Position numbers and translations under genes: made by a program. Below the pieces are notes generated by a model that made no database searches, had not been told where the DNA came from, and saw nothing but the letters and a program-made list of their open reading frames with translations. A stretch of 64,000 nt of DNA, taken from NCBI GenBank assembly GCA_016932575.1, contig JAFGCO010000011.1:108321-172320 (forward strand), written 5' to 3'. Source of the stretch: a bacterium (GTDB lineage: Bacteria; Zhuqueibacterota; QNDG01; JAFGCO01). Shown here one piece after another: positions 15,421 through 58,213 of the stretch (position 1 is the first letter of the stretch; the number at the start of each line of letters is the position of its first letter).

Positions 15421-16665
15421 TCACTCCTTCCCGCAGCATTGTTTAAATTTTTTTCCGCTGCCACAGGGACACGGCTCGTTGCGTCTTATTCTCAATCCGG
15501 AAGCAATCTGCTCTTTGATCTTCTGCTTTTTCTGTTGAATCTGCCAGATCTCGGCCATTTTTCGAAAGACCGGATCCGCATGCTTAAAAAACATTTGGTA
15601 ACTCTGACATAAATAATTTAATCCGGGTGTATTGTTATGGAAAACACGGTTTTTCGGACAGCCGCCCTGACAATGAACTAACCATGGGCATTTTTGACAC
15701 ACATCCGGTAAATTGCTTTTTACCGACCCGAATTTATTTTGTAACGGGGAATTCAGACAATCTGAAAGGCTGTCCTGTATAATATTTCCCAGCCGCCACT
15801 TTGGATGGACAAAAAAATCGCAGGCATAAATATCTCCGTTATGTTCAATGACTGTATAAATGCCGCATTCAGGCAGCAATGTGCATTCCGGCGGACTCAG
15901 GTGAACATAAGTGAAAAACAAGGATTCAAACCACCGGATATAGGTTGATGGTTTTCCATCAATAAAATCATCATGCCATCGATTAAATAATCGGATCAGA
16001 AATCGACCGTATAATTCCGGGGACACAGTAAAAAAAGCCGGCTCGCCCTTACGATTTGGATGGAATTCAACACAGGGAATAAATTGCATGAATTTGAGGC
16101 CGTTTTCCTTATGAAACGTATAAATCTCATCGGGATACCGCACAGAATGATCATTCACCACAATCAGCGCATTGACATCGACATCCGCTTCGAGCAAAAT
16201 ATCCCTGGCCCGGATAACCCGGGACCAGGTCGGCTGTCCGTTACTGAAACGCCGGTAATGATCATGAACGAATTCCGGTCCGTCCAGAGAAAGTCCCACC
16301 AGAATTCCGGTATCACGGAAAAATCGTGCCCAATCCGAATCGATGAGGATACCGTTGGTCTGCAAGCCATTGCCGCAGTGCTGTCCGGACCGCTGGAATT
16401 TCTGCTGAAATTCAACCGCTTTCTTAAAAAAGGAAATACCCATCAGTGTCGGCTCACCGCCCTGCCATCCAAAAGAAATGTTATTTTCTCCCTGGTCCAT
16501 AACTTGACGCACCAGCATGCGCAAAAGCTCGATTGTCATGCGATGTGTTTTTGATTCAGGAAATAAAGCGGATTTTTGCAGATAAAAGCAGTAAGTGCAT
16601 TCCAGATTGCAATCCGGTCCGGCCGGTTTCACAAGAACAGATTGAATGCCTTTTTTCTTTATCAT
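15421..16665 (-). CDS. radical SAM/SPASM protein, anaerobic sulfatase-maturating enzyme-like, with C-terminal SEC-C motif
   Basis: CNLECTYC (CX3CX2C) cluster, QGGEPTL, Cys-rich SPASM region, C-terminal PCPCGSGKKFKQCCG. Confidence 0.8.
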   Translation of the reverse strand: MIKKKGIQSVLVKPAGPDCNLECTYCFYLQKSALFPESKTHRMTIELLRMLVRQVMDQGENNISFGWQGGEPTLMGISFFKKAVEFQQKFQRSGQHCGNGLQTNGILIDSDWARFFRDTGILVGLSLDGPEFVHDHYRRFSNGQPTWSRVIRARDILLEADVDVNALIVVNDHSVRYPDEIYTFHKENGLKFMQFIPCVEFHPNRKGEPAFFTVSPELYGRFLIRLFNRWHDDFIDGKPSTYIRWFESLFFTYVHLSPPECTLLPECGIYTVIEHNGDIYACDFFVHPKWRLGNIIQDSLSDCLNSPLQNKFGSVKSNLPDVCQKCPWLVHCQGGCPKNRVFHNNTPGLNYLCQSYQMFFKHADPVFRKMAEIWQIQQKKQKIKEQIASGLRIRRNEPCPCGSGKKFKQCCGKE

Positions 16666-19061: not shown

Positions 19062-20669
19062 TTATTTCATCAGCATCATCTTGTTGGTGATAACTTCCGT
19101 TGCTGTTTCCAGCGTGTAGAAGTAAACACCACTGCTGAAGTTAGAACCGTCAAATGTGACGGTGTTCAAACCGGCCTGACGTACATCATTCACCAGTGTG
19201 GCAACTTCGTTGCCCAGAACATCGTACACGGTCAGTTTCACAGCACTCTTCTGAAGCAGGTTGAACTGAATCGTGGTAGACGGGTTGAAAGGATTGGGGA
19301 AGTTCTGAGCCAGAGCGAATTCATCCGGCTGTGCAATATCTTCGACCGCATCGCCACCGACGAGCATGGCTGTTCCCATGCGGGAGGCATCGGCCCAGGT
19401 CATATTGTCACTGCCCCACCAGCGCAGCATGTCTTCGCGTTTGTCCGTTCCGTCACGGTCGTTGATCTGAATTTCGAAGCCAATTTCTGTATCCGCTTCC
19501 AGATCCATCGGCAGATCGGCTGCAGGAATCGTCAATTCACAGGTATAGCCTTCGAGGTCTTCTGCCAGCTCGCCCCAGGCAAAGACACTGTTGGGAGAGT
19601 TGTAATCGTTGACCGGATTGTCCCAGACCCAGCGCATCTGAAGGTCATTGGCATCATAAGAGGTGGCTTTTTCATTGCCGCCGTCGAAACAGAGCTCGAT
19701 ACTGTCGTTCTCATAGCTGTTGGCGCCGCTTGTGTCGAGAACGTCATCAATGATTTCAAACCACAGATAGAGGGCGTCGGCATCCCAGGCGGCCCTGAAT
19801 TCCATCTGAAGGTCTTCCCATTCTTCGATCTCGGTAAAGCTGCCGTCCACCTGATCGGCATTGGTATACACATAGGTGCCTGCTTCGATGACGGGAACAT
19901 CCTGCCACGCAGCATCCAGCTCGCCGTCGACTTCCAGGGCTGCAGGAGCCGGTCCGATATTCAGGACATCGTCAGCTTCATAACCGATCAGCTCGGCAGT
20001 TCCGAACAAAGAAGGATCCTGCCATGCCATGTTGTCTGTACCCCACCAGCGGTACATGTGTTCGCGGCTTTCATTGTCACGGTCATTAATCTGAATCTCG
20101 AAACCGAAAACTTCACCCTCTTCGGCCACAATGCCCAGGGGGTCCAGAGGAAATGCGACTTCGAGGATCCAGCCAAAAGCATCACCGTCAATGGCTTCCC
20201 ATTCGGCTGTGGCGGCTTCGGTGCCTTCTGGACAACTGTCATACAGTGAGGCGTCCGAACCATCCTGAAGCTCGATACGTGTCTGAACGTCATCGGCTCC
20301 GTAGGTGGTTTCTTTATCGTTTCCGGCATCAAAATAAATCTCGGCGCTGTCATTCTCGTAAGAGTTGGCTGAACTTGAGCTGAGTTCATCATCCACAACT
20401 TTGATGAAAATATAAAGATTGGTGTCATCCCACAAAACACGGGATTCAACGAACAGATCAAGATAGCCATCGACTTCTATAGATTCGCCATCGAGCTTTA
20501 CGCAGCGTTCGGTCGAAGCTGCCCAGTAAACAACATCCATGTCACCATCGATAACCGGTGCAGTGGCGGCTTTGTGAACCTGCCATACATCATCTTTAAC
20601 ATAGGCCATCGAGGCTGCAACAAAAATAATCATTGACAAACAAATCAGTGCGGATAACACTCTTTTCAT
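19062..20669 (-). CDS. secreted protein with two CBM9-like carbohydrate-binding domains and T9SS C-terminal sorting domain
   Basis: 535 aa; signal peptide; duplicated module (..WDDTNLYIFIKVVDD.., ..WDADALYLWFEIIDD..); C-terminal NFPNPFNPSTTIQF...GVYFYTLE. Confidence 0.75.
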   Translation of the reverse strand: MKRVLSALICLSMIIFVAASMAYVKDDVWQVHKAATAPVIDGDMDVVYWAASTERCVKLDGESIEVDGYLDLFVESRVLWDDTNLYIFIKVVDDELSSSSANSYENDSAEIYFDAGNDKETTYGADDVQTRIELQDGSDASLYDSCPEGTEAATAEWEAIDGDAFGWILEVAFPLDPLGIVAEEGEVFGFEIQINDRDNESREHMYRWWGTDNMAWQDPSLFGTAELIGYEADDVLNIGPAPAALEVDGELDAAWQDVPVIEAGTYVYTNADQVDGSFTEIEEWEDLQMEFRAAWDADALYLWFEIIDDVLDTSGANSYENDSIELCFDGGNEKATSYDANDLQMRWVWDNPVNDYNSPNSVFAWGELAEDLEGYTCELTIPAADLPMDLEADTEIGFEIQINDRDGTDKREDMLRWWGSDNMTWADASRMGTAMLVGGDAVEDIAQPDEFALAQNFPNPFNPSTTIQFNLLQKSAVKLTVYDVLGNEVATLVNDVRQAGLNTVTFDGSNFSSGVYFYTLETATEVITNKMMLMK

Positions 20670-36562: not shown

Positions 36563-38497
36563 TTATGCTCGAAAAAACGCTTTAAGAAGGATTTCTATAT
36601 CCAGAAAAATCGAATAATTTTTCATATAATAATGTCTGTATTTCATTTTCTCTTCATCGGTCAGCTGCTTGGAACGGTGAATCTGGACCATACCGGTTAA
36701 TCCGGGTTTGAAGCCCATAGGGGCCATATCTGGTTCGAACGGGATCATTTCTGTACCAACGACGCTCATCTGCCCAAAAAGAATCGGAATTATCAAGAAG
36801 AGAATTTGCACCAGACCATGCATTTTCTTCTCCCGCCTCCAAACCTGAATAATCAACAATTTCTGTCCCATACCATTTGATATATACTCTTTCTGAAACC
36901 GTAATCCCGGTGCGACAAGAATCCATAAACCGGTGATCAAGGAAAAAGGTGCAAGAACAATCACCCACACCAGATCGAATAATCTTTTAAACAACAGGTT
37001 CCATCCCTGAAAAATGGGATAATCCAGATCCATCAATGCGATATCATCAAAAGTATCCACATTTGAATGCCCGATCAGTACATCCATTTGACGCGGAACC
37101 ATCTTAAAATCCAGATGTAAATCCTTTCCCCGGCTCATGAGTTTTAAAATACGGTTATAGCTGACTGATTCTGCAGGAAAAATCACTTCATGAATACGAT
37201 GGGCCACAGCCACACGCTCGATATCTTCAAGGCTCCCCAGAAGCGGTACAGATTTCACTTTCACATCTTTTTCAGTCGCTTCATCAAGAGAAACAACGCC
37301 GACTACCTCATAGCCGGTATCAGGATGTCGTCGCAGGTTTTTAAGAATACGTTGACTTGCACTGCCTGTGCCCACAACAATAACCCTGCGATTGACCATG
37401 GACCGGCCCAGTCTGCTGAACAGAACAAACCGGCTTTTTTGGGTGGCAATACGGATCATAAAGCGCCATCCGCTTAAAAAAACAGCATCCAGGAATGCTG
37501 CGATCAACAGCACTGCCCGGCTGAACTGATATTCCGGAAGAAAAAAAGTTACCGACGTATTCAAGACAAACCCGAAGAAAACAGCACCGATGGCATTGCT
37601 GACACTCACCAGGCTCCGGCGGTAAAGTCCCATGCCCCAAAAACAACCCAGCCAGATCGTGGAATAGATCACATTGACCCAACCATATCTTGGCCAATAA
37701 GCGGGATTTTTCAACCAGACAAGAATCGCGATGAAAAGTCCGATTTGAAGAAAAAGCAGATCAATAACCGGTACGAATATCCGTTGAAAAAGGTGTGATA
37801 AAAAACCAATCCCTCCGCGAAGCCAAATACCGATCATTAAAAACCATTGCGGTAAAAACGCCCATCCTGATTGAAAGTGTTTACGTACAAAAAGCTGCAT
37901 GGCTCCGTAAAAAATACGCAGATTATCAAAGGGTGCTTCATTTGCGCTGCGCCCTTTGTAATGGATGATCTGAGTGGTTGGCAGATAGATAATTCTCCAT
38001 CCTGTTTTGCGTATCCGGTAGCACCAATCCAGATCTTCACCATACAAAAAAAATTGTTCATCTAATAATCCGGCTTCATCCACTGCTTTTTTACGAACAA
38101 ACATGAATGAACCGGAGATGGCTTCCACTTCGGTTGTATCATCAGGATCAAGATAGGTTAAATTATACCGGCCGAATAACCGGCTTTTCGGAAAAAGCCT
38201 GTTCAAACCTATCGCTTTCGTGAATCCGACCCATGGCGTCGGATAACTACGCCGGCAGGCCAGCTGCAGGCTGCCGTCAGGATTGAGAATCTTACATCCC
38301 GTCATACCGACTTCAGTATGGGCCTCCATATAATTCAGACACACCCGGAATGTGTCCTCACGTACCAGAGTATCAGGATTAATCAGACAAATATATTTTC
38401 CTGTTGCTGTTTTTAAAGCCTGATTATTGGCTTTTGCAAATCCTAGATTTTCTGAATTGGTAATGAGTTGAACCGTACGAAACCGCTTCCGGACCAT
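36563..38497 (-). CDS. bifunctional GT2 glycosyltransferase / polyprenyl glycosylphosphotransferase (bacterial sugar transferase) fusion
   Basis: N-terminal GT2 (YGEDLDWCYR), central TM region, C-terminal sugar-transferase domain (PGLTGMVQIHRSKQLTDEEKMKYRHYYMKNYSIFLDIEILLK); see start-codon anomaly in findings. Confidence 0.7.
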   Translation of the reverse strand: MVRKRFRTVQLITNSENLGFAKANNQALKTATGKYICLINPDTLVREDTFRVCLNYMEAHTEVGMTGCKILNPDGSLQLACRRSYPTPWVGFTKAIGLNRLFPKSRLFGRYNLTYLDPDDTTEVEAISGSFMFVRKKAVDEAGLLDEQFFLYGEDLDWCYRIRKTGWRIIYLPTTQIIHYKGRSANEAPFDNLRIFYGAMQLFVRKHFQSGWAFLPQWFLMIGIWLRGGIGFLSHLFQRIFVPVIDLLFLQIGLFIAILVWLKNPAYWPRYGWVNVIYSTIWLGCFWGMGLYRRSLVSVSNAIGAVFFGFVLNTSVTFFLPEYQFSRAVLLIAAFLDAVFLSGWRFMIRIATQKSRFVLFSRLGRSMVNRRVIVVGTGSASQRILKNLRRHPDTGYEVVGVVSLDEATEKDVKVKSVPLLGSLEDIERVAVAHRIHEVIFPAESVSYNRILKLMSRGKDLHLDFKMVPRQMDVLIGHSNVDTFDDIALMDLDYPIFQGWNLLFKRLFDLVWVIVLAPFSLITGLWILVAPGLRFQKEYISNGMGQKLLIIQVWRREKKMHGLVQILFLIIPILFGQMSVVGTEMIPFEPDMAPMGFKPGLTGMVQIHRSKQLTDEEKMKYRHYYMKNYSIFLDIEILLKAFFRA

Positions 38498-39396: not shown

Positions 39397-39870
39397 TTAT
39401 GGTTTTTGGGGGATTTTACTGCCGGAGTTCCTGAAATCCAACAATTTCTGCTTCAATTCATCGTCTTGAAGCGCCAGAATCTGAACGGCTAAAATTGCCG
39501 CGTTTTTTGCACCGGCCTTGCCAATGGCTACAGTTGCCACAGGAATACCCGGAGGCATCTGAACAATGGAACAAAGCGCATCCAATCCGCTCAGAGGTGA
39601 AGCATCCAGAGGCACACCAATGACCGGAAGCACAGTCTGAGCGGCTACAACTCCGGGAAGATGTGCTGCCATGCCCGCACCGGCAATAATAACACCATAG
39701 CCCTTGTTTTCTGCCGAGGTGGCAAATGCTGTTACTTTATCCGGATCCCGATGGGCAGACATCACATAAACTTCATAGGGAATACCAAAAAAATCTAAAG
39801 CATCGGCGCAAGCCTGCATGACCTCTTCATCAGAGGTGCTGCCCATTAATATTGCTGCCTTTTTTACCAT
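39397..39870 (-). CDS. purE: 5-(carboxyamino)imidazole ribonucleotide mutase PurE
   Basis: 157 aa; PurE sequence (ILMGSTSD, SAHRDP, AGMAAHLPGVVAA); SD AAGGA. Confidence 0.9.
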   Translation of the reverse strand: MVKKAAILMGSTSDEEVMQACADALDFFGIPYEVYVMSAHRDPDKVTAFATSAENKGYGVIIAGAGMAAHLPGVVAAQTVLPVIGVPLDASPLSGLDALCSIVQMPPGIPVATVAIGKAGAKNAAILAVQILALQDDELKQKLLDFRNSGSKIPQKP

Positions 39871-43434: not shown

Positions 43435-46197
43435 TTAGGGAAGCATATCGGCTGTCGATCCGGTCGTGGTGTCATTTCCCATGAGCCTCATTAAAGATTC
43501 CAGCTCTTTTTTCGCATTGGGATCACCCGGATTCTGTTGCAGCCATTCTTCCAGAAACGCAACAGCGCGCTCATATTGACCGGATTGTCTATATAGGTAA
43601 AACAATTCTGACTGTGTACGCATATCATTGGGATCATCCTCTATCAATTCATTGAGAACCTCTTCAGCATAGTCGTACATTCGAAACACATAAGCCGCAT
43701 AGCTGGCTGTTTCCCGGGTTTCCTGTTTTGATTTGATACGGCCAGGAATTACATTTTTAATTCTTTCTTCGATATCGACATCCATACCCAGATCGCGTGC
43801 CACCTTATTCAGCAACATTGCTGTCAACTCACTGGGATAATAAATTTTTTCTGGAGGCATGAGCTCATCCATGGTCTGATATACCTCGACTGCCAGGTCT
43901 CTCTCACCTTCACTCTGATAGGTCTGCGCCAATCGAATAAACGCGGATCGATAATTACCCAGCAATTTTAAAATATTGGTATTTAAATGGACCGAAGGAT
44001 CATTCAGCCCTCGATACTGATATTTTTCCAAAATGTTTCTGTGCAACACATCCGGATTGACATTGTCATTCACTTCGTACGGCATCACCCGAAAAGCCAG
44101 CCCGTCCATACGTAAATAAGAATCCAGATTGATCATATTATTATTGGCCACTGTAACAGCAAAATACACAGGTCGCTGCCACATGTTGTCATACAAAATT
44201 CTAAGAATCATTAAATCCTGCACCCGAAGCACCATCGGATTATTCTCAGGATACGTGGGCTCCAGCCTGAACGTGATTTTGTCAGGAATGCCTTCGAGTA
44301 TTTTCTTGCGTTCGTTCAGTTCCATGGTTTTGGATGCATCCCGCTGATTTTGATCCGTTCCCAAAAGCGCATCGGCTTCACGCTCCCGGATTTGCGGCGG
44401 TACCGGAATGGAAATATCCTGGGATTCCCACTGACGGTAATTGATCTCATCAATTTCCCTGTTTTTCAAGCGTATGGGTACTTTAGGTTCTTCATCACGC
44501 AATTGATAAATATACCAGGGCGTATTCAGCAGGGACAAATTTACAACCCGGACATCTTTCCGAATACCCTCCACTTCCTGCAGGTACCAAAGCGGGAACG
44601 TGTCATTGTCACCGTTTGTAAAAATTATGGCATTGGGTTCACAAGTTTGAAGAATGTTATAAGAATAATCATAAGCGACATAATTGCCGGACCGGTTATG
44701 TGATTCATAATTAAATGCGATCAGATTCACCGGAACGATAATGAGAAGAATGATTGTAACAAGCCCAAAAATCGCCTTTTTAAGCGCAATTCTATCCTTG
44801 ACCGCTTCTGAAATCCATTCCAGAATGCCTGCCATGCCGATACCGATCCAGAGTGCAAAAGCAAAGAAGCTGCCGACATACGAATAGTCACGCTCCCGGG
44901 GCTGGGGGTCGGGCTGGTTCAAATAGATAATAATGGCATATCCGGTAATCAGAAAGAACACAAGAACAGCGACTGCCCGTTTCCAGTCCCTGCTGAAATG
45001 GTGTACCGCACCCCAGACACCCACAAAAAAAGGCAAGCCGTACAATCCGCGCACACTGATAATATCGACCAGACGGTCGTGATAATCCATCGCAATGCCT
45101 TTGCCGATAAACTGCCAGCCGAAATAACGAGTATACATCATCTGTATCTGATAATTCCAAAAATCGGCTTTGCGGTATAAAAATGTCAGGAGCATGCTCT
45201 CCTGACCATACTGTTTCCTTCCAAGGTAATCCATCATCGCCTGAAACGTGGATGGATTATTTTCATTGATCGGCGGATTCATACCCGCACGAACATAGAT
45301 CATGAGATACGTTGAATATCCGACAATAACGAGTACGGGTAAAACCCACCAGGCGGCAAAAGCTTTCCGGTCTTTATAGTACATATACATAAGGGTGATA
45401 ACGACCCAAATGCCGCCAAACCATTTCAGAAAATTCCAGGCTTGAGCCTGGTGCTCGAGCATGTTTACACCCATTTTTTCAGGATCGTACTGATAAATCA
45501 GAATGTATAAAGTGATCGGTACAATGCCCTGAATAATAATCAGCATTAACAAATTGCGTACAGATTGATTATGATGAAAATAGGCAATAAGCAGCACAAA
45601 AGGAAATGCCAGAATATTCAGTAAATGGACGCCTGCGGCCAGACCGAAAAGATAGAAAATAAAAAAGATAAGCAACATGCTTCCCGTTTTTTCAGAGCGC
45701 TCGCCCCATAACAGGGCCAGCCAGATGACCAGTGCCGTGAAGAATATGGAAAATCCATAGACCTCAGCTTCAACTGCATTAAACCAGTGGCTGTCCGTAA
45801 ATGCAAAGGCCAGGGCGCCGAACAATGCACTTCCGTACATGATCCAGAGATCCTCCCAGGTCCTGGCTTCGCCCCGCCAGCGGCGGATCAACTGAACGAT
45901 AATTAAAAAAGTCAGGAACACTGTAGCCGCACTGATAAAAACCGTAAACATGTTTACTCTCAGACCAATATCCTCAAAAAAGGGCAGCATGGTCATGATC
46001 CGTCCGATCAGCAGATAAAGAGGCGCACCCGGGGGGTGAATGACACCGAGAATATATGATGACGCGATAAATTCGCCACAATCCCAAAATGAGGTGGTCG
46101 GCGCAACAGTGCTGTAATACACCAAAAAGGAAATGATAAAAACCAGCCCGCCAAAAATATATTGTATGCGACGATTTAAAGATTCAACGAATTGCAT
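43435..46197 (-). CDS. DUF2723-type GT-C fold membrane glycosyltransferase with C-terminal TPR repeats (PMT/ArnT/TMTC-like)
   Basis: 920 aa; N-terminal FWDCGEF...HPPGAPLY, about 11 TM helices, large periplasmic loops, C-terminal TPR-like helices; SD GGAGG. Confidence 0.7.
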   Translation of the reverse strand: MQFVESLNRRIQYIFGGLVFIISFLVYYSTVAPTTSFWDCGEFIASSYILGVIHPPGAPLYLLIGRIMTMLPFFEDIGLRVNMFTVFISAATVFLTFLIIVQLIRRWRGEARTWEDLWIMYGSALFGALAFAFTDSHWFNAVEAEVYGFSIFFTALVIWLALLWGERSEKTGSMLLIFFIFYLFGLAAGVHLLNILAFPFVLLIAYFHHNQSVRNLLMLIIIQGIVPITLYILIYQYDPEKMGVNMLEHQAQAWNFLKWFGGIWVVITLMYMYYKDRKAFAAWWVLPVLVIVGYSTYLMIYVRAGMNPPINENNPSTFQAMMDYLGRKQYGQESMLLTFLYRKADFWNYQIQMMYTRYFGWQFIGKGIAMDYHDRLVDIISVRGLYGLPFFVGVWGAVHHFSRDWKRAVAVLVFFLITGYAIIIYLNQPDPQPRERDYSYVGSFFAFALWIGIGMAGILEWISEAVKDRIALKKAIFGLVTIILLIIVPVNLIAFNYESHNRSGNYVAYDYSYNILQTCEPNAIIFTNGDNDTFPLWYLQEVEGIRKDVRVVNLSLLNTPWYIYQLRDEEPKVPIRLKNREIDEINYRQWESQDISIPVPPQIREREADALLGTDQNQRDASKTMELNERKKILEGIPDKITFRLEPTYPENNPMVLRVQDLMILRILYDNMWQRPVYFAVTVANNNMINLDSYLRMDGLAFRVMPYEVNDNVNPDVLHRNILEKYQYRGLNDPSVHLNTNILKLLGNYRSAFIRLAQTYQSEGERDLAVEVYQTMDELMPPEKIYYPSELTAMLLNKVARDLGMDVDIEERIKNVIPGRIKSKQETRETASYAAYVFRMYDYAEEVLNELIEDDPNDMRTQSELFYLYRQSGQYERAVAFLEEWLQQNPGDPNAKKELESLMRLMGNDTTTGSTADMLP

Positions 46198-46618
46198 GCA
46201 ATGCCTCCATTAATGCTTTTTGAACCTATTGCAACGAAAAATGTTAAAAATATATACAGCCGTTTTTAAAATAATAAACTGATCCATGATTCAGACGGGA
46301 TTCAGGCTTTTTCAATCCCTTGCTTTGAACTGCCTTGTTTTTTCGAGAACTCATCCAGGTTTTGATAAACAAGATGAAAGCTGTTTAAGATACGGCAAAA
46401 TTTCATTGAAATCAAGAAATAACATGATTTCATAAAAGACAAAATAAGGACGAAAGAAAACAAAAAAAAGTTTTTATAAGTTGTTTTTCAAAGGAACTTC
46501 AATTGGTTCTGTGCATAAAATTATAAGCGGTAAAAATTCAGGTCTTGTCTTTCACATTAAGCAAGGAGCTTTATCATCCTTCAGCCTGCAATAAAAACAA
46601 ATTCCATGGTGAGTAAAA

Positions 46619-49600
46619 ATGAAGAAAAAAAATCATTTCATTTCAAGACGATCCTTTTTCAACAAAAGCGCCGCCGGAACACTGGGTTTCATCCTGTCTC
46701 CCTCATCATTCAATCGATTGTTCAGTGCTTCTCTTTCTGACGGAGATAAATCATCTGTGGTAGTGGTGACAGATGAAAATGTGGTGGGTTCAAATCAGGA
46801 AGGAATCGATTCCGCAGTGGTTCAATCCATGATAGACGCCGCGATTCGGATTCTTACAGGAATCAATGATCTCGGAAATGCCTGGAAAACCCTTTTTCCC
46901 GGAATCACATCAAAAAGCATCATCAGTATTAAGGTCAATTGTATCAACAGACGTATGGCAAGCCATAAAAAAGTTGCCTATGCGATTGCGCATGGACTGA
47001 CTCAAATGCAATTCGATGGAATGTCATTTGCCGAAAACAATATCATCATTTGGGATCGCAAAGAAGGTGAACTGAAAAATGCTGGATACACATTAAATAC
47101 ATCTTCCAAAGGAATTCGTTGCTATGCCAGCAACAGTTCCTGTGCCGGTTATTCAAAAAAAAATTATAACGTCTATGGCAGTCGCCAGGCCCTGAGTCGT
47201 ATACTGACCGATCAGACAGATTTTCTTATTAACCTGTCTATACTGAAAAATCATGGATCAGCCGGTGTCACCCTGAGCATGAAGAACCATTTGGGATCCT
47301 GCGACGATCCGGCGAAATTGCACCCCAATTACTGCAGTCCCTACATTGCAGCATTAAACGATAAAGACGCAATCAAGACGAAACAAATGCTCTGCATATG
47401 CGATGCCCTCTATGGCATCGTTTCTGGCGGCCCCTCCGGATCTCCTCAGGTGGCACCTAAATCCCTGATTGTAAGCCGGGATCCGGTGGCGCACGATACG
47501 ATTGGTTCTCAGATATTAGAGCAATTTGGATGCAGGACAGTACACAAAGCCATTCATATTGCCGCGGCGGCTTCAACCGGTTATTATCTTGGCACCAATG
47601 ATCCTGCTAAAATCGATCTGCTGGAAATTAAAAATCCATCATCACAGATTATTGAAAATCCGCCTTCTGAAAAAAGCCGGGTTGTCAGTGTGTCTGACGA
47701 CAGAGCTGTACAGAAAAAGGAAGACCAGATATCAATTCGGGAAGACATTATCCAGGTGATGGTGGATGAAGGTATCTGCCGCACCATGCAGAAAACAGAT
47801 GTGGGTGAAGCATGGAAGAAGCTGTTTCCCGGGCTCACCCGGGACAGTGTGATCGGAATCAAGGTGAACTGCGAAAATAACCACCTTTCCAGCCATTCTG
47901 AAGTTGCCATGTCTATTGTCAACGGATTAAAACGGATGGAGGTTAACGGCAGCGGCTTTCCTGAAAAAAACATTCTGATTTGGGATCGCAATGAATCGAA
48001 TCTGACATCGGCGGGGTATTCACTGAATCAAGGGGGGAGCGGTGTGCAGATTTATGGTACCGACAGGGAGGGTGTTGGCTATTCAGATCCGCCTTACACG
48101 GTTTGCGGTCAATCTCAGAGATTAAGTGCTATTCTGACGGAAAAAACCGACTACTTAATCAATCTTTCGGTATTAAGCAATCACGAAATTCTGGGTGCGG
48201 CTCTGGGAATGTACAGTCAAACAAGAAGCTGTGAATATCCTGAACTTCTTTATGAAAATGCCGGTAATCCCGGCATTCCCGCTCTGAATAACCTCTCTCC
48301 CATCCGGGACAAACAGGTGATATCTGTTTGCGATGCTGTTTTAGGAATCATCAGTGATGGATCCCAGGGAAAAATACCTGTCACATCCAGACAGCTTCTT
48401 TTCAGCCGGGATCCGGTCGCCAATGACTGGGTCGCTTCTGAAATTCTGAGAAATCATGGATGCAATACTGTGGATAAAGCTGCTTATATCGAAACCGCAT
48501 CGCATATTCCGTATAATCTCGGTACCAATGATCCTGAATGGATAGAACTGGAAAATGTGATCAATCCGTCACTCGGAATCATTGAAGATCCGCCTGAAGC
48601 CAAAAGCACGGTGGTGAAGGTTTATGATGAGCATGCAATTGCAGGTACAGGGAATTCTGAACAATTGAATGCCGCAGTGATTCAGGCCATGGTGGATGCG
48701 GGGATTTGCAGGTTGACAGGGATGACACATGTCGGAGAAGCCTGGAAAAGCATGTTTCCAGAAATCACCCGAAACAGTATCATCGGAATACGGATAAACT
48801 GTGACAACCATCCTTCCAGTCATCCGGAAGTTGTCCGTGCAGTCATCAACGGGATTGTCCAGATGCAAGTCGAAGAAAGTCCGTTTCCGGAAGAGCATAT
48901 CATTGTTTGGGCATCTTCGGAAGCAGACCTTCTTGCTTCAGGTTATACAATCAGAAAGCAGGGAAACGGATATCGATGCTATGCCACAGACAGTTCCGGA
49001 AAAGGATACACAACGTCCACATTGACAGTGATGAATTCAGAGCAGAAATTAAGCAGGATACTAATGGACGAGATCGATTATTGTATTAATTTGCCTGTAC
49101 TGCGGTCTCATGATACGGCGGGTGTGTCTTTGGGATTGATGAACAGTCTGAAAGATTGCCATAATCCGGAAGCACTCTCCGGTAATCATTACGATCCAGG
49201 CATTGCCGAGCTTAATTATCTTTCTGTGATTCGTGAAAAGCAGGTTGTCACGCTTTGCGACGCCATTTACGGCCGGATATCGGCGGCATCAGACAATCTG
49301 GTAATGCCTCGGACACTGACCATCAGCCGGGATCCTGTAGCGCACGACATGGTGGCATCCGAAATATTAAAAACACAGGGATGCGAAACCACAGAAGAAG
49401 CTACATATATCGATACGGCTGCACATTATCCTTACCGGCTCGGAACCAATGATCCGGATTGGATGAGGTTAGTGGAGGTGCAGAATCCCGCCGGAAATAA
49501 CGGAACCGGCACTTCAACAGTTGCGCAAAAAGATTATAACGGGATCAACCATCCAGGCACATTCCAGCTTTATCCAAATTATCCCAATCCTTTTAATGGG

Positions 49601-49834
49601 CAAACACAGCTGATGTATTATTTGCCCGGATCGCAATATGTTGAACTGGATATTCTGGACGTGCAGGGACAGCGGGTCAAACGCCTGATAAATCGCATTC
49701 AGGAGCAGGGCATGCATCGGGTATTATGGAACGGCCGTTCCTCACGGGGAATGGCGCTTCCGACCGGGACCTATATTGCGCGAATCCGGTCGAATGGCAT
49801 CCATCAAACTCGTAAAATGACCCTGATCCAGTAA
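46619..49834 (+). CDS. secreted protein: twin-arginine signal + three tandem DUF362-like domains + T9SS C-terminal sorting domain
   Basis: 1071 aa; SRRSFFNK Tat motif; three ~290-aa paralogous repeats with conserved KVNC, CDA[LVI]xG, SRDPVA[HN]D, LGTNDP; C-terminal YPNYPNPFNGQT...GTYIARIRS. Confidence 0.75.
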   Translation: MKKKNHFISRRSFFNKSAAGTLGFILSPSSFNRLFSASLSDGDKSSVVVVTDENVVGSNQEGIDSAVVQSMIDAAIRILTGINDLGNAWKTLFPGITSKSIISIKVNCINRRMASHKKVAYAIAHGLTQMQFDGMSFAENNIIIWDRKEGELKNAGYTLNTSSKGIRCYASNSSCAGYSKKNYNVYGSRQALSRILTDQTDFLINLSILKNHGSAGVTLSMKNHLGSCDDPAKLHPNYCSPYIAALNDKDAIKTKQMLCICDALYGIVSGGPSGSPQVAPKSLIVSRDPVAHDTIGSQILEQFGCRTVHKAIHIAAAASTGYYLGTNDPAKIDLLEIKNPSSQIIENPPSEKSRVVSVSDDRAVQKKEDQISIREDIIQVMVDEGICRTMQKTDVGEAWKKLFPGLTRDSVIGIKVNCENNHLSSHSEVAMSIVNGLKRMEVNGSGFPEKNILIWDRNESNLTSAGYSLNQGGSGVQIYGTDREGVGYSDPPYTVCGQSQRLSAILTEKTDYLINLSVLSNHEILGAALGMYSQTRSCEYPELLYENAGNPGIPALNNLSPIRDKQVISVCDAVLGIISDGSQGKIPVTSRQLLFSRDPVANDWVASEILRNHGCNTVDKAAYIETASHIPYNLGTNDPEWIELENVINPSLGIIEDPPEAKSTVVKVYDEHAIAGTGNSEQLNAAVIQAMVDAGICRLTGMTHVGEAWKSMFPEITRNSIIGIRINCDNHPSSHPEVVRAVINGIVQMQVEESPFPEEHIIVWASSEADLLASGYTIRKQGNGYRCYATDSSGKGYTTSTLTVMNSEQKLSRILMDEIDYCINLPVLRSHDTAGVSLGLMNSLKDCHNPEALSGNHYDPGIAELNYLSVIREKQVVTLCDAIYGRISAASDNLVMPRTLTISRDPVAHDMVASEILKTQGCETTEEATYIDTAAHYPYRLGTNDPDWMRLVEVQNPAGNNGTGTSTVAQKDYNGINHPGTFQLYPNYPNPFNGQTQLMYYLPGSQYVELDILDVQGQRVKRLINRIQEQGMHRVLWNGRSSRGMALPTGTYIARIRSNGIHQTRKMTLIQ

Positions 49835-50079: not shown

Positions 50080-51312
50080 TTACGTCTTCAGCTTAAACAC
50101 GATATTCATATCAATCCCCTGAGTGTTCCGGACCGTCCAAAAATCTCCCCGCAATTGAACATCTATCAGTTCGCGAAACCATTGATACTCAGTTCGGATT
50201 TTGTCTTTTTCAATATCAGGCAGCAATTCGGCGTCTTTATGACGAATCTTAACTGAGAGAGCGGAATCATCGGTGCGTTTTATCAGAATTTGAAACCGAT
50301 CTGAATCCTGATATAATTCGCGCTTTTTATTGGCTAAAAAAAGAATTTCGGAAATCACAAAAGCGAAAGGGACTGCTTGAGAAATCGGAATTAAAATATG
50401 CGGATTATCAATATGGATTTGAATTTCATTTGTCAAATGTGCATGAAAAAAATAATTGGCGATTTCAGTTAAATACTCTGAAAGATTGACCTGGTTGAAA
50501 CGATCAGACTGATGCAATTGCATATGCATCAAAATCAGAGAATAAATCATCACTCGAATTTCAGTATACAGTTTCCTTTGCGTTTCCTGCTCCGCTTGCA
50601 TAATATGTATATCCAGCAGACTGCATAAATGCTGCAGATGGGTTCTCGAGGATTGATGAACCGTACGAATGTAAGAAGACTTCTGGCGTAAAAGTTCTCG
50701 CAGCTCCTCTTCTTCCCATTTTTTTGACTTTATCTTTTTCTGATTGTCTTCACGCTCCAGTTCCATTTCTTTGATCTTGCGTTCCAGATCTTTGATCTGT
50801 GAATCACGGATCGTTTTCAGCATATCCTTGGCTTTTTGCCGGTCTTCAATCAAGGTTTTTACATAAGCACCGAACAAAACAAGCATGCAGATCGCAAAAA
50901 TCCGCATCCAGAAGCCCAGAGGATCCGGTTTAAAAATTTGCTGAAGCAAACTCCCGCGATTATAAATAAACACATCCCGTATTGCTTCCAGAATCCAGTA
51001 AATAAGACCAAACACCAGACTGAGAAGAATAATCGTCCCCTTGCCTAAAAAATCGAGATCTTTGTCCTTGGCTTCTGCTTTTTGCCTCATGGATTGAATA
51101 ATGGCACTGAATGCCATAATAATGCAAATGACCATAATCCGCATCCATAGGGACATGCTTTCCGGTGCAAAAATTCGCTGAACGAGACTGCCTTTTTCAA
51201 AGGCAATGACATCCCGGACCGATTCAAGCACCCAGTAAACCCCGGAAAAGAACAAGCCGATCCAGATAAAATTAACAACATGTTTGGACTTGATATTCAC
51301 TTGAGATGACAT
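50080..51312 (-). CDS. membrane sensor histidine kinase-like protein (HisKA_2-type H-box) with duplicated N-terminal membrane module
   Basis: Two repeats of WxLExxRDV...GSLxQxIFxP...WMRIxxIC; coiled coil; HQSSRTHLQ H-box-like and ATPase-like C-terminus; start moved to ATG 51312 preceded by AAGGAG. Confidence 0.5.
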   Translation of the reverse strand: MSSQVNIKSKHVVNFIWIGLFFSGVYWVLESVRDVIAFEKGSLVQRIFAPESMSLWMRIMVICIIMAFSAIIQSMRQKAEAKDKDLDFLGKGTIILLSLVFGLIYWILEAIRDVFIYNRGSLLQQIFKPDPLGFWMRIFAICMLVLFGAYVKTLIEDRQKAKDMLKTIRDSQIKDLERKIKEMELEREDNQKKIKSKKWEEEELRELLRQKSSYIRTVHQSSRTHLQHLCSLLDIHIMQAEQETQRKLYTEIRVMIYSLILMHMQLHQSDRFNQVNLSEYLTEIANYFFHAHLTNEIQIHIDNPHILIPISQAVPFAFVISEILFLANKKRELYQDSDRFQILIKRTDDSALSVKIRHKDAELLPDIEKDKIRTEYQWFRELIDVQLRGDFWTVRNTQGIDMNIVFKLKT

Positions 51313-51570
51313 TTTTCCACTCCTTAAAGTGAACGGATATTTCACCTCATTCACGGTAAAAATGAATAAAAAAACAGCTCTCTGGATTTAAAAGTACAAC
51401 GGAAGACTGTTGAATTATTGAAATCCTTTCACTGAGCATCTGTATTTTTTAATTTATACAAAATTAATGACATATCTGATACAGGTCATCCTTTTCAACA
51501 TCAGCAATTATCGATTTTTATCTGCAGTCCGGACCGCATGAGATCCCCTACATTTTTTGCTTGTGTTTTT

Positions 51571-55280: not shown

Positions 55281-58007
55281 TTATTCATTCAATACGGCCA
55301 GATTCGCTTTCAGCTTCTCCAGCTTTTGCTGTGTGTCTTTCTCTTTCTGCTTCTCTCTTTCAACCACTGACCCAGGCGCGCGTCCGATAAAATTTTTATT
55401 TTTTAATTTTGCCGAGATGCCTTTTAGCAATCCTTCCAGACGCAGGATTTCCTTTTGAATACGGTCTTTTTCTTTATCGATATCAATCAATCCGCCTAAG
55501 GGAATAAATAACTCCAGATTTTTCACCACACTGGCCGCGGCTGATTCGGGACGCTGAAGTCCGGCACCGGTTTCAAGATGATCCACATTTGCCAGCCGAC
55601 GGATATGAAGTGCGTACTGATCGACAGATTTAATAGCCTCTGCATCCCCACGTATAAAAAGGCTGGCTTTTTTATCCTGAGGCACATTCATTTCTCCGCG
55701 GATATTTCGAACTGAAGTAATCACCTGCTGCAAAAGCTCCATTGATATTTCTGCATCATCATCCACAAATCCGGATTCGAAAACAGGATATTGCTGCGTC
55801 ATAATTGTTTTCATTCCTTCGGAATTTTCAGATGAATGCAGTGCCTGCCAGACCTCTTCTGTAATAAATGGAATAAATGGATGAAGCAGGCGCAGAATCC
55901 GCTCCAGAGTATACAATACGACAGACTGTGCTTTCTTTCTGACTTCTGACTGATTCCGGACATATAACCGCGGTTTAATCAATTCCAGATACCAGTCACA
56001 AAATTCTCCCCAGACAAATCCATGAATTGTATGCGCTGCCTCATTGAACCTGAATTGTTCCAAATCCTGATGAACTTGCCTGATGCTTTTTTGAAGCCTG
56101 CTCAGTATCCAGCGATCAGTGATGTCCAGAGAAGTAAAATGCAAGTCATGGTTATGAGGCAGTTTGTCTGTCTCATCCAGATTCATCAGAACAAAACGGG
56201 AAGCATTCCATAATTTATTGCAAAACTTCTGTCCCATCTCAACAAGTGTATGATCAAAATGAACATCTCCGCCGAGAGGCGTCAAATAAACCATGGTCAA
56301 TCGGATCGCGTCCGCGCCATAAGCAGGCACGCCTTTTTTATATGATGGATTTTTTTTTGCAAACTCCTTTACGATTTCGGAGTCAGCCCCCTGAATCAGC
56401 CAGAGCGGATCCGGTGAATTTCCAAGCGATTTAGACATTTTCCGGCCGGATAAATCCCGAATCATCCCATTGAAATATACATCAGTAAACGGCACATCAC
56501 CCATAAATTCCAAAGAGGCCATAATCATACGTGCCACCCAAAAAAAGATAATATCCGGTCCTGTGGCCAGCGTATTGGTGGGGAAAAACTTGCATAGTTC
56601 CGGCTCTTCCTCAGGCCAGCCCAATGTACTGAATGGCCACAACCAGGATGAGAACCAGGTATCCAGCACATCCGGATCTTGTGTTAATTTTGTACTGCCG
56701 CACTCTGAACAAACCGTCGGGATTTTACGGGATACATTAAGATGACCATTGTCACAGGTCCATACCGGAATCCGGTGTCCCCACCAGATCTGACGACTGA
56801 TGCACCAGTCCCTGATATTCTCCATCCAATGAAAATAAGTGTCTTCCCAATGTTTGGGATAAAATTTAATTTTGCCCTCTTTCACAGCATGAACAGCAGG
56901 TTCGGCCAACGGTTTCATTTTCACAAACCACTGGTCGGACAAATAGGGTTCAACAACAGTATCACATCGATAGCAGTGGGGCACCGGTGTCAGACGGGGC
57001 TCTTCTCCCGCTAAAAAATCCGATTTTGCCAGATCATTGAGTACTTGCTTTCTTGCTTCAAACCTGTCCAGTCCCTTGTAGGGACCTGCCTGATCATTCA
57101 TCACACCCGCTTCATCCATGATTTGTATTTGTTCCAGATGGTGACGTTCTCCCACTTCAAAATCATCAAAATCATGAGCGGGCGTGATCTTGACGGCACC
57201 GCTCCCCTTTTCCGGATCCGCATGCTCATCGGCAATAACCGGAATCTCGCGGTTCATCAATGGCAGGATTACGGTTTGTCCAATAAGCTTCTTATACCGT
57301 TCATCTTCCGGATGAACCGCAACGGCTGTATCACCCAGCATGGTTTCAGGACGGGTTGTTGAAACAATGATAACCTCCCCTGAATTCTTCACTGGATATT
57401 TGATATGCCAGAATTTTCCATTGATATCCCTGCTCGGTGCCTCCTCATCTGCCAGGGCCGTATGACATCTCGGGCACCAGTTAATTAATCGCCGTCCTCT
57501 ATAAATATATCCTTTTTCATAAAGACGAATAAATACTTCTTTCACTGCATTACTGAGGCCTGAATCCATCGTAAATCGCTCACGTTCCCAATCACAGGCA
57601 GCCCCCAGTTTTCTGAGCTGCTGAAGGATAATGCCGCCAAATTTTTCTTTCCATTGCCAGACGCGTTCGATTAATTTTTCCCTGCCAAGATCGTAACGGG
57701 TCAATCCTTCCTCACGCAATGCGGCCTCGACTTTATTCTGTGTGGCGATACCTGCATGATCGGTTCCGGGCATCCATAGCGTTTCACAGCCCTCCATTTT
57801 TTTCCATCGAATAAGTAAATCCTGGATTGTATTATTAAGAATATGCCCCATCGTCAGCATGCCTGTGACATTGGGAGGCGGAATCATGATGGTATATTTC
57901 GGTTTCTCTGAATCAGGATCGGCATGAAATAATCGGTTCTTCATCCAATAATCATACCATTTATTTTCAACTTGAGCAGGATGATACACTTTATCCAGCG
58001 TTTTCAT
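55281..58007 (-). CDS. valS: valine--tRNA ligase
   Basis: PPPNVTGMLTMGH (HIGH-type) and KMSKSLGN motifs, C-terminal coiled coil; start moved to ATG 58007 (M26 of the track ORF). Confidence 0.9.
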   Translation of the reverse strand: MKTLDKVYHPAQVENKWYDYWMKNRLFHADPDSEKPKYTIMIPPPNVTGMLTMGHILNNTIQDLLIRWKKMEGCETLWMPGTDHAGIATQNKVEAALREEGLTRYDLGREKLIERVWQWKEKFGGIILQQLRKLGAACDWERERFTMDSGLSNAVKEVFIRLYEKGYIYRGRRLINWCPRCHTALADEEAPSRDINGKFWHIKYPVKNSGEVIIVSTTRPETMLGDTAVAVHPEDERYKKLIGQTVILPLMNREIPVIADEHADPEKGSGAVKITPAHDFDDFEVGERHHLEQIQIMDEAGVMNDQAGPYKGLDRFEARKQVLNDLAKSDFLAGEEPRLTPVPHCYRCDTVVEPYLSDQWFVKMKPLAEPAVHAVKEGKIKFYPKHWEDTYFHWMENIRDWCISRQIWWGHRIPVWTCDNGHLNVSRKIPTVCSECGSTKLTQDPDVLDTWFSSWLWPFSTLGWPEEEPELCKFFPTNTLATGPDIIFFWVARMIMASLEFMGDVPFTDVYFNGMIRDLSGRKMSKSLGNSPDPLWLIQGADSEIVKEFAKKNPSYKKGVPAYGADAIRLTMVYLTPLGGDVHFDHTLVEMGQKFCNKLWNASRFVLMNLDETDKLPHNHDLHFTSLDITDRWILSRLQKSIRQVHQDLEQFRFNEAAHTIHGFVWGEFCDWYLELIKPRLYVRNQSEVRKKAQSVVLYTLERILRLLHPFIPFITEEVWQALHSSENSEGMKTIMTQQYPVFESGFVDDDAEISMELLQQVITSVRNIRGEMNVPQDKKASLFIRGDAEAIKSVDQYALHIRRLANVDHLETGAGLQRPESAAASVVKNLELFIPLGGLIDIDKEKDRIQKEILRLEGLLKGISAKLKNKNFIGRAPGSVVEREKQKEKDTQQKLEKLKANLAVLNE

Positions 58008-58213
58008 GTATTTCTGTCTCCATATCAGGAATATTATTTTGCAAGGGTTGTAAAAGATACGGAAAATGCGGTTTATTGTCAATGACCAATAAAATCAGAT
58101 TCCTAACAAAATGAAATAATTATTTCATTTCGTTAACATTTGTAAAATGATTGTGAATCAGTGGGCGGTTATAAGAATTTATTATTATGGGAGTTATGAT
58201 ATTTTTTAAAAAA

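Follow-up and report, generated by a model that had tools for sequence, protein, structure and literature searches.

We report that the gene at positions 46619..49834 of a 64,000-nucleotide stretch of contig JAFGCO010000011.1 (GenBank assembly GCA_016932575.1; the whole stretch is hereafter called the window) encodes a protein that combines a predicted twin-arginine translocation (Tat) signal, three DUF362 modules and a predicted C-terminal sorting domain (CTD) for secretion by the type IX system (T9SS). Our data suggest that the product is a cell-surface or secreted enzyme-like protein which probably uses two export steps not previously paired, a reading to which we give about even credence. 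Only the first of the three modules has the residues that are invariant in the family, and the combination of twin-arginine signal, DUF362 and CTD recurs in relatives of this protein.

All characterised T9SS cargo carries signals of the general secretory (Sec) pathway (PMC10202324, PMC9251779, T9GPred), and T9GPred applies the criterion "no Tat signal", taken from 102 experimentally verified cargo proteins, and discards candidates with a Tat signal. The pairing that was pointed out in the initial annotation is indeed at odds with these published Sec-only statements, and our literature searches turned up no paper on T9SS cargo that depends on Tat, none that studies what DUF362 (PF04015) does and nothing on the T9SS in WOR-3 or KSB1. 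Since the T9SS moves folded proteins (PMC9251779), a first step through Tat is mechanistically plausible. With T9SS type-A cargo, e.g. gingipains and proteins of the Flavobacterium johnsoniae ChiA type, the window protein shares a C-terminal beta-sandwich of ~85 amino acids (aa) that follows a flexible linker and scores over the TIGR04183 cutoff, as well as homology to the CTDs of PorU, PorZ and F. johnsoniae cargo. It departs from all described cargo in having a twin-arginine instead of a Sec signal, and its host lies near candidate division KSB1 and not, as the hosts of that cargo do, in the Bacteroidota. Tat-dependent substrates of the type II secretion system (T2SS) exist, e.g. the phospholipases of Pseudomonas aeruginosa. 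The logic is alike, in that Tat carries the folded protein over the inner membrane and a separate outer-membrane system secretes it folded, but the outer-membrane machine is another one and the signal of the window protein would be a discrete C-terminal domain.

Signals at the two ends of the protein

The first 44 residues comprise a long basic n-region, a twin-arginine motif, a weakly hydrophobic h-region (SAAGTLGFILSP) and a c-region with a basic residue, Arg33, ahead of the likely cleavage site (possibly SAS/L, near aa 36-38). The motif, S9-R-R-S-F-F-N-K16 (nt 46643-46666), had been read as near-consensus in the initial annotation, and it follows the pattern S/T-R-R-x-F-L-K between the n- and h-regions. 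Among 31 homologues having Tat signal, DUF362 and CTD, R10, R11 and F13 are conserved at 90% or more, and an RRxF[LI]-type motif is present at the same N-terminal position in 125 of the approximately 150 best homologues; most of those lacking it are truncated or begin inside the DUF362 domain. As an internal Sec control we used a second CTD protein encoded in the window, the CBM9_1 protein at 19062..20669, with the signal MKRVLSALICLSMIIFVAASMA: the maximal 12-residue Kyte-Doolittle mean is 2.94 for this signal vs 1.15 for the h-region of the DUF362 protein. The same difference is seen for CTD proteins from 56 related loci, where the Arg-Arg pair is present on all 39 scored DUF362-CTD proteins vs none of 16 other CTD proteins, and where the median h-region value is 1.37 vs 2.77, respectively. 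Moreover, paralogous DUF362 proteins in two of the loci (L028 and L014) pass PF10518 and TIGR01409.

Genes for the Tat machinery adjoin the DUF362-CTD gene in several relatives. Specifically, a divergent tatA-tatC pair is present next to it in at least nine related loci, mainly from WOR-3, and lies directly upstream in L018, L021, L023, L025, L030, L034, L037, L039 and L054 (e.g. L021 4641..5591, minus strand); the bit scores are 199 for TatC (TIGR00945) and 72 for TatA (TIGR01411). In the WOR-3-type loci tatA was masked by a longer antisense shadow open reading frame (ORF) in the mechanical ORF call, and L046 differs in having two TatA/B-like ORFs 1.7-3 kb upstream. Taken together, the reading of the N-terminus as Tat-type rather than Sec-type is well supported by motif, h-region and family conservation, though not proven.

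At the other end, the last 85 aa score 29.9 bits on TIGR04183 (T9SS type A sorting domain; cutoff 23), which agrees with the C-terminal hallmarks noted in the initial annotation, and 29.2 on Pfam FlgD_ig (cutoff 27); the score on Pfam Por_Secre_tail (PF18962), 23.2, is under the cutoff of 27. In the full-length AlphaFold2 (AF2) model this region forms an all-beta domain of seven strands over aa 983-1069, with predicted local distance difference test (pLDDT) values of 91-96, behind a disordered linker. A profile of the family CTD matches, over the full length, PorU (6za2; E=3.8e-5), the CTD of an F. johnsoniae cargo protein (8glj_D; E=0.015) and PorZ (E=0.11). The same ~85-aa tail closes many unrelated secreted multidomain proteins, including P0005-P0015, and is always found at the extreme C-terminus, which is the behaviour expected of a sorting signal. 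The CBM9_1 protein is also tailed in this way, which suggests that the host organism puts the CTD on several cargo proteins and lends indirect support to T9SS machinery in its genome.

The DUF362 modules and their relation to LarA

Pfam DUF362 (PF04015) matches the protein in three stretches (E=6.4e-33; 114.9 bits vs a gathering score of 24), as anticipated by the initial annotation, which had also described three paralogous repeats of ~290 aa. The three modules stand, with 43-46% identity between pairs, but each is ~308 aa long. Each gives ~1e-172 against a profile of the other modules; a blastp search of the protein against itself returned the diagonal only, and the modules were resolved by explicit alignment and hidden Markov models (HMMs). 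The sequence blocks listed earlier are all present: KVNC at positions 105 and 415 (RINC at 725 in module 3), CDA at 261/571/880, SRDPVA at 286/596/903, GCxT at 304/614/921 and LGTNDP at 324/634/941.

The modules are not equivalent. Across 148 homologous domains the positions conserved at 90% or more are, in module numbering, K61, N63, D102, N161, K166, H168, K178, N179, G182, H191, D218, D244 and D249; module 1 has the complete set (K105, N107, D146, N205, K210, H212, K222, N223, G226, H235, D262, D288 and D293 in protein numbering), and K166, K178, N179/G182 and H191 are kept by module 1 only. Module 2 is changed at K166 (to S), K178 (Y), N179 (S), G182 (R), H191 (Y) and C195 (G), and module 3 at K61 (R), D102 (A), K166 (R), K178 (M), G182 (K) and H191 (S). 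Among about 75 aligned domains from the related loci, position 178 is Lys in essentially all except the downstream modules of multi-module proteins. In these it is Met or Tyr, with H191 replaced by Ser, Tyr or Glu, K166 by Arg, Ser, Asn or Ala, and C195 lost.

In a neighbour-joining tree all first modules group with the single-module proteins and all downstream modules form one separate clade. By position, the window protein and P0003 are 65% (first modules), 60% (modules 2) and 56% (modules 3) identical, and both tree and identities indicate that module orthology tracks position. As judged from these sequence comparisons, the architecture appears to be one canonical module plus conserved pseudo-enzyme modules, older than the split of these lineages. 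The degenerate modules are confidently folded in the AF2 model of the full-length protein (mean pLDDT 88.5); its predicted template modelling (pTM) score of 0.49 is low and leaves the relative placement of the modules undefined. Modules 2 and 3 derive from an ancient duplication. Because they have lost the Lys and the neighbouring invariant His and yet are conserved and folded, their role is most likely a non-catalytic one, in scaffolding or binding.

Module 1 modelled separately (pLDDT 96.5, pTM 0.94) is predicted to have a LarA-like fold, i.e. the Lar_N-type alpha/beta fold of the lactate racemase N-domain, with an invariant polar pocket, and this agrees with the Pfam clan assignment of DUF362 (PMC11770544). 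When genuine LarA proteins (P0170-P0172, from Loigolactobacillus) are compared with the DUF362 HMM, LarA residues 82-245 give ~26 bits (E=1e-5), the gathering score being 24; genuine nickel-dependent lactate racemases thus exceed that score and the two Pfam families overlap at the sequence level. With the LarA sequence verified against 5HUQ, hhalign in local mode (27-50 columns, probability ~0.3) pairs LINLSILKNH168GSAGVTLSMK178 of module 1 with LISEGFIESH174FFAGFSGGRK184 of LarA. His174 of LarA is catalytic and Lys184 binds the cofactor, a nickel-pincer nucleotide (NPN) (PMC11770544). Because the alignment is statistically weak, we only infer that H168 corresponds to the former and K178 to the latter. 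In the family, conservation exceeds 90% for each of the two, and K178 is absent from modules 2 and 3. D102 and K61/N63 lie at strand ends corresponding to His108 (the second catalytic His) and Arg75 (phosphate-binding) of LarA, and H191 is 13 residues past the Lys vs 16 for the nickel ligand His200, in neither case with a reliable alignment.

The module also differs from the LarA superfamily. These NPN-dependent 2-hydroxyacid racemases and epimerases (Lar_N/DUF2088, clan CL0471; 5HUQ, 7S91, 9EIA, 4NAR, 9Q3J) are just 10-17% identical to the module and have both a Lar_N match and a LarA_C domain, which the window module does not. A counterpart of His108 is either lacking or uncertain, and the distance to the putative His200 counterpart differs as given above. 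Known LarA enzymes are all cytoplasmic, whereas proteins of the DUF362 subfamily have Tat signals and in many cases a secretion tail. The hhalign global mode gave no meaningful result against the LarA alignment, a search for LarA homologues returned close relatives only (77-99% identity) and did not deepen the LarA profile, and sequence and profile searches of the PDB found no DUF362 relative, only FlgD and Tat-signal look-alikes.

Relatives, neighbourhoods and the window

Comparison of 1.8 billion representative proteins with a profile built from 11 modules gave 2538 matches, of which 401 lay below 1e-30. Most often the protein contains a single module and measures about 440-460 aa. Such single-module proteins with Tat signal, DUF362 and CTD are common in metagenomes, and the multi-module forms are rare (four modules in P0002, three in P0003 and in the window gene, and two in the L005 protein); the architecture is thus not unique, contrary to the initial impression. 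The same ~85-aa CTD ends 38 of the best ~150 homologues. A scan of species-representative genomes yielded 52 loci, all in metagenome-assembled genomes (MAGs), from WOR-3, Zixibacteria, Latescibacterota, LCP-89, Sumerlaeota, Stahlbacteria, Cloacimonadota, Eisenbacteria, Gemmatimonadota, Ignavibacteriaceae, Poribacteria and Planctomycetes, and one 90%-identity cluster of the same architecture contains a protein of 'Bacteroidetes bacterium 4572_114'. The recurrence of Tat signal, DUF362 and CTD across uncultured phyla of FCB (Fibrobacteres-Chlorobi-Bacteroidetes) type is real, and the pairing is evolutionarily conserved.

Around the single-module relatives a gene cluster recurs in ~20 loci (L006, L020, L024, L026-L028, L036, L043, L045-L047 and others; e.g. 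L028 5890..12931). Its members are the DUF362-CTD gene; a DUF6599 protein of ~180 aa, sometimes fused to a Laminin_G domain and a CTD; a second DUF362 protein with Tat signal, ~306 aa, without CTD; a polyferredoxin of ~500 aa with NapH-like (Fer4_5) and NapG-like parts; and a beta-propeller protein of ~900 aa with weak Reg_prop/PorZ_N-like matches. The operon is confined to the single-module relatives, and no conserved neighbours were found around the window gene or the multi-module relatives. Membrane ferredoxins of the NapH/NosR type typically serve periplasmic redox enzymes that are exported by Tat, as in the pairs NapA with NapGH, NosZ with NosR, and reductive dehalogenases with RdhC. The window protein has the twin-arginine signal in common with these enzymes and would presumably, as they are, be a cofactor-bearing catalytic subunit, and its relatives share the NapH-like (Fer4_5) and NapG-like polyferredoxin in the operon, although the window gene itself has no such neighbour. 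It also differs in that the DUF362 fold is unrelated to those of the molybdopterin, copper and corrinoid enzymes and in the outer-membrane secretion tail. In metagenomes of Firmicutes DUF362 is fused to CBM9 and dockerin (PMC5742341), and the window itself encodes a CTD protein with two CBM9 domains. Together with the polyferredoxin operon, these links to CBM9 give a hint of a redox role outside the cell that may have to do with carbohydrates.

Some related loci show variations of their own. L010, L011, L014 and L022 (LCP-89 type) have expanded clusters with 3-4 separate DUF362 paralogues and a fusion protein of Laminin_G_3, DUF6599 and CTD (about 610-650 aa), and in one class of paralogues in loci of this type Ala replaces the otherwise invariant H168. 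In P0004 (L003 10001..11911) two copies of an unannotated ~90-aa repeat ('GSVxLxQTTVTQGExVKVNWSxWPGKVNIALYKxGTFW...') lie between the single DUF362 module and the CTD.

The features of the window gene and its surroundings are listed in Table 1. The gene is the sole long ORF on the plus strand of the region, with an in-frame stop three codons 5' of the ATG, and since both flanking genes are on the minus strand it is apparently monocistronic. The protein is entered at NCBI as MBN2102985.1, 'DUF362 domain-containing protein [bacterium]'. An identical gene is present in a separate, independent assembly of run SRR13394437, so that the repeats and the architecture are no assembly artefact.

Table 1. 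Coordinates of the DUF362-CTD gene, its predicted parts and selected genes of the window
Feature	Residues	Position	Strand	Basis or remark
Complete gene	1-1071	46619..49834	+	1071 codons plus stop, ATG start; product 1071 aa
Possible Shine-Dalgarno sequence		46608..46613	+	GGTGAG, 5 nt from ATG; inferred from sequence reading
Tat-type signal peptide (predicted)	1-44	46619..46750	+	Motif, h-region, family conservation
DUF362 module 1	45-352	46751..47674	+	Canonical, LarA-like (predicted); full invariant set
DUF362 module 2	353-662	47675..48604	+	Degenerate
DUF362 module 3	663-968	48605..49522	+	Degenerate
Flexible linker, Gly/Thr/Asn-rich	969-986	49523..49576	+	Model pLDDT <50 over aa 962-979
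Type-A T9SS C-terminal sorting domain (predicted)	987-1071	49577..49831	+	Opens NYPNPFN; TIGR04183, model
Upstream neighbour, TMEM260-like glycosyltransferase		43435..46197	-	With tetratricopeptide (TPR) repeats
Downstream neighbour, HisKA_2 kinase		50080..51354	-	
Second CTD protein, 535 aa		19062..20669	-	2x CBM9_1 plus type-A T9SS CTD (TIGR04183, 43.4 bits); Sec signal

The window is ordinary chromosome, with pst/phoU, valS, recG, pckG, accA, purE and two-component systems; an Rfam scan of it gave no match, and a promoter/terminator scan was uninformative. Among named organisms, the closest relatives of the ValRS encoded here, at 63-64% identity, come from candidate division KSB1, and the host is therefore taken to be an uncultured FCB-type bacterium, from sediment, that falls outside the Bacteroidota. 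Its only AIRC-domain gene, 39397..39870, was considered as larB and rejected: it scores 193.6 bits on TIGR01162 and 28 on the LarB model (cutoff 175) and is purE. A functional link between the protein with two CBM9 domains and a CTD and the DUF362 protein is conceivable in view of the fusions of CBM9 with DUF362 seen elsewhere (PMC5742341). For valS (55281..58082, minus strand) the ORF call begins at a TTG 24 codons 5' of the NCBI start, and the short form of 908 aa agrees with all homologues. The gene at 36563..38497 (minus strand; 643 aa) is an apparent fusion of a family-2 glycosyltransferase (GT2), CoA_binding_3 and the C-terminal part of Bac_transf, and its neighbours form an envelope glycosylation cluster (GT2, an LPG_synthase_TM protein, DUF4837 and a TMEM260-like O-mannosyltransferase). 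Finally, the gene at 15421..16665 (minus strand) encodes a radical SAM and SPASM protein with a SEC-C metal-binding motif at its end, with no obvious gene for a precursor peptide adjoining.

Proposed function and alternative readings

In the route that we propose, the protein would fold in the cytoplasm, very likely with loading of a cofactor, and would then be directed by its twin-arginine signal to the Tat translocase, as suggested by sequence and family conservation. In the periplasm the beta-sandwich of the CTD would be recognised by the T9SS, and the folded protein would be transferred across the outer membrane and anchored or released; this last step is proposed from the homology of the CTD. 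The functional unit would be module 1. Its chemistry would most likely be hydride or electron transfer (as an oxidoreductase or an epimerase) on an extracellular substrate, since the single-module relatives share an operon with the NapH/NapG-like membrane polyferredoxin.

Several observations weigh against this proposal. To our knowledge, the T9SS has been shown experimentally solely in the Bacteroidota, and most of the present hosts belong to other candidate phyla of the FCB type. The signal-peptide models PF10518 (E<=10) and TIGR01409 (E<=1) give no match on aa 1-46 of the window protein, no gene for the Tat components TatA and TatC or for the T9SS components SprA/Sov, PorV, PorU and PorK-N was seen among the window ORFs scanned, and the operon partners of the relatives are absent beside the window gene. 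The family CTD profile matches the Ig-like domains of FlgD (E=1.7e-10) more strongly than the validated T9SS CTDs. With respect to LarA, the equivalence of H168 with H174 and of K178 with K184 comes from the weak local alignment described above, neither Lar_N (PF09861) nor LarA_C (PF21113) matches the window protein at E<=1 (the same models give 250 and 234 bits on genuine LarA), and none of larB, larC and larE was seen within the window.

Some of these points bear on other explanations of the two ends. The silence of the Pfam and TIGR01409 signal models on aa 1-46, together with a motif that is off consensus (F in the position of L and an extra N ahead of K), would fit an ordinary Sec signal with a chance Arg-Arg pair on a protein that is standard Sec-then-T9SS cargo. 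We consider this improbable: RR-x-F is conserved in position in nearly all homologues, the Arg-Arg pair is missing from every one of the scored non-DUF362 CTD proteins, hydrophobicity of the h-region (1.15-1.37) is far below that of the Sec-type CTD proteins in the window and the loci (2.8-2.9), and tatA and tatC adjoin the gene in relatives. Similarly, the best match of the CTD profile being FlgD, the Por_Secre_tail score below the gathering score of 27, the lack of T9SS genes among the scanned ORFs and hosts that are not Bacteroidota could all mean that the CTD is no T9SS signal but a general-purpose Ig domain of the FlgD type, serving adhesion, oligomerisation or attachment to the wall, on a protein that is periplasmic or leaves by another route. 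This has a certain weight but is unlikely, given that TIGR04183 is over its cutoff, that the domain sits at the extreme C-terminus of many unrelated secreted proteins, that its full-length matches include PorU, PorZ and F. johnsoniae cargo CTDs, and that one cluster of the same architecture includes the Bacteroidetes MAG protein.

As to the modules, the initial annotation had found the shared Cys-containing blocks suggestive of a metal or cofactor site. In the corresponding model there would be three equivalent metal or iron-sulfur modules built on conserved Cys residues, with Tat needed for the metal centre. C64, C184, C217 and C261 are indeed invariant among the three modules of the window protein, and according to Pfam, as quoted in PMC5742341, DUF362 is found in some iron-sulfur proteins. 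That association stems, however, from fused ferredoxin domains and not from DUF362 proper. Across the 148 domains the same Cys residues are conserved at only 61%, 16%, 47% and 22%, respectively, a Cys in any one of the four best-conserved columns (64, 124, 195 and 217) does not go together with a Cys in the others (Fisher p>0.17), and close relatives already lack single Cys residues (N at 217 in P0004, I at 184 in module 2 of P0003). A shared Cys-ligated site is therefore unlikely, and conservation and co-occurrence led us to reject the Cys-cluster hypothesis; with the modules differing at the truly invariant residues as well, we regard the model of three equivalent metal modules as very improbable. 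Another view is that no part of the protein acts as an enzyme and that it serves at the surface as a scaffold or substrate binder, its LarA-like fold having been taken over solely to bind ligands. Modules 2 and 3 are conserved without the putative catalytic and cofactor residues, and the DUF362 fusions with CBM9 and dockerin in Firmicutes belong to cellulosome-type proteins (PMC5742341), both of which would fit. We nevertheless think it quite unlikely, since none of the polar residues that are invariant in this family of thousands of proteins is missing from module 1, and the Tat targeting and the polyferredoxin partner of the relatives point to a cofactor-dependent redox role. Our preferred reading remains export by Tat and then by the T9SS of a protein with one enzyme-like module.

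A wider proposal, which we put forward tentatively and hold to be possible but on the doubtful side, is that extracytoplasmic LarA-like enzymes are widespread, possibly with a nickel-pincer-type or other cofactor assembled in the cytoplasm, that they reach the surface by a Tat-then-T9SS route not described before, and that they are wired to the quinone pool by the NapGH-like polyferredoxin. In the window gene, one catalytic module would be fused to two pseudo-enzyme modules. Should this hold, the T9SS accepts Tat-exported holo-proteins and hydride-transfer chemistry of the LarA type operates outside the cell.

Reviews and prediction tools hold a Sec signal to be obligatory for T9SS cargo. The twin-arginine signal together with the CTD is present in dozens of protein clusters, which represent many FCB-type phyla and take in at least one Bacteroidetes MAG, and this argues that the T9SS may be able to take Tat-exported, pre-folded and probably cofactor-loaded proteins, as the T2SS does; if so, cargo predictions for FCB-type phyla are systematically incomplete. 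One intact module with conserved degenerate copies would be a clean natural example of pseudo-enzyme modules. Moreover, structure and context now offer a first way into DUF362, which has thousands of members: a predicted LarA-like fold with an invariant Lys/His/Asp pocket, apparently obligatory Tat targeting in this subfamily and a conserved operon that also encodes a NapH/NapG-like polyferredoxin. Taken as a whole, these features lead to the concrete hypothesis that uncultured anaerobes have an enzyme of redox or epimerase type outside the cell.

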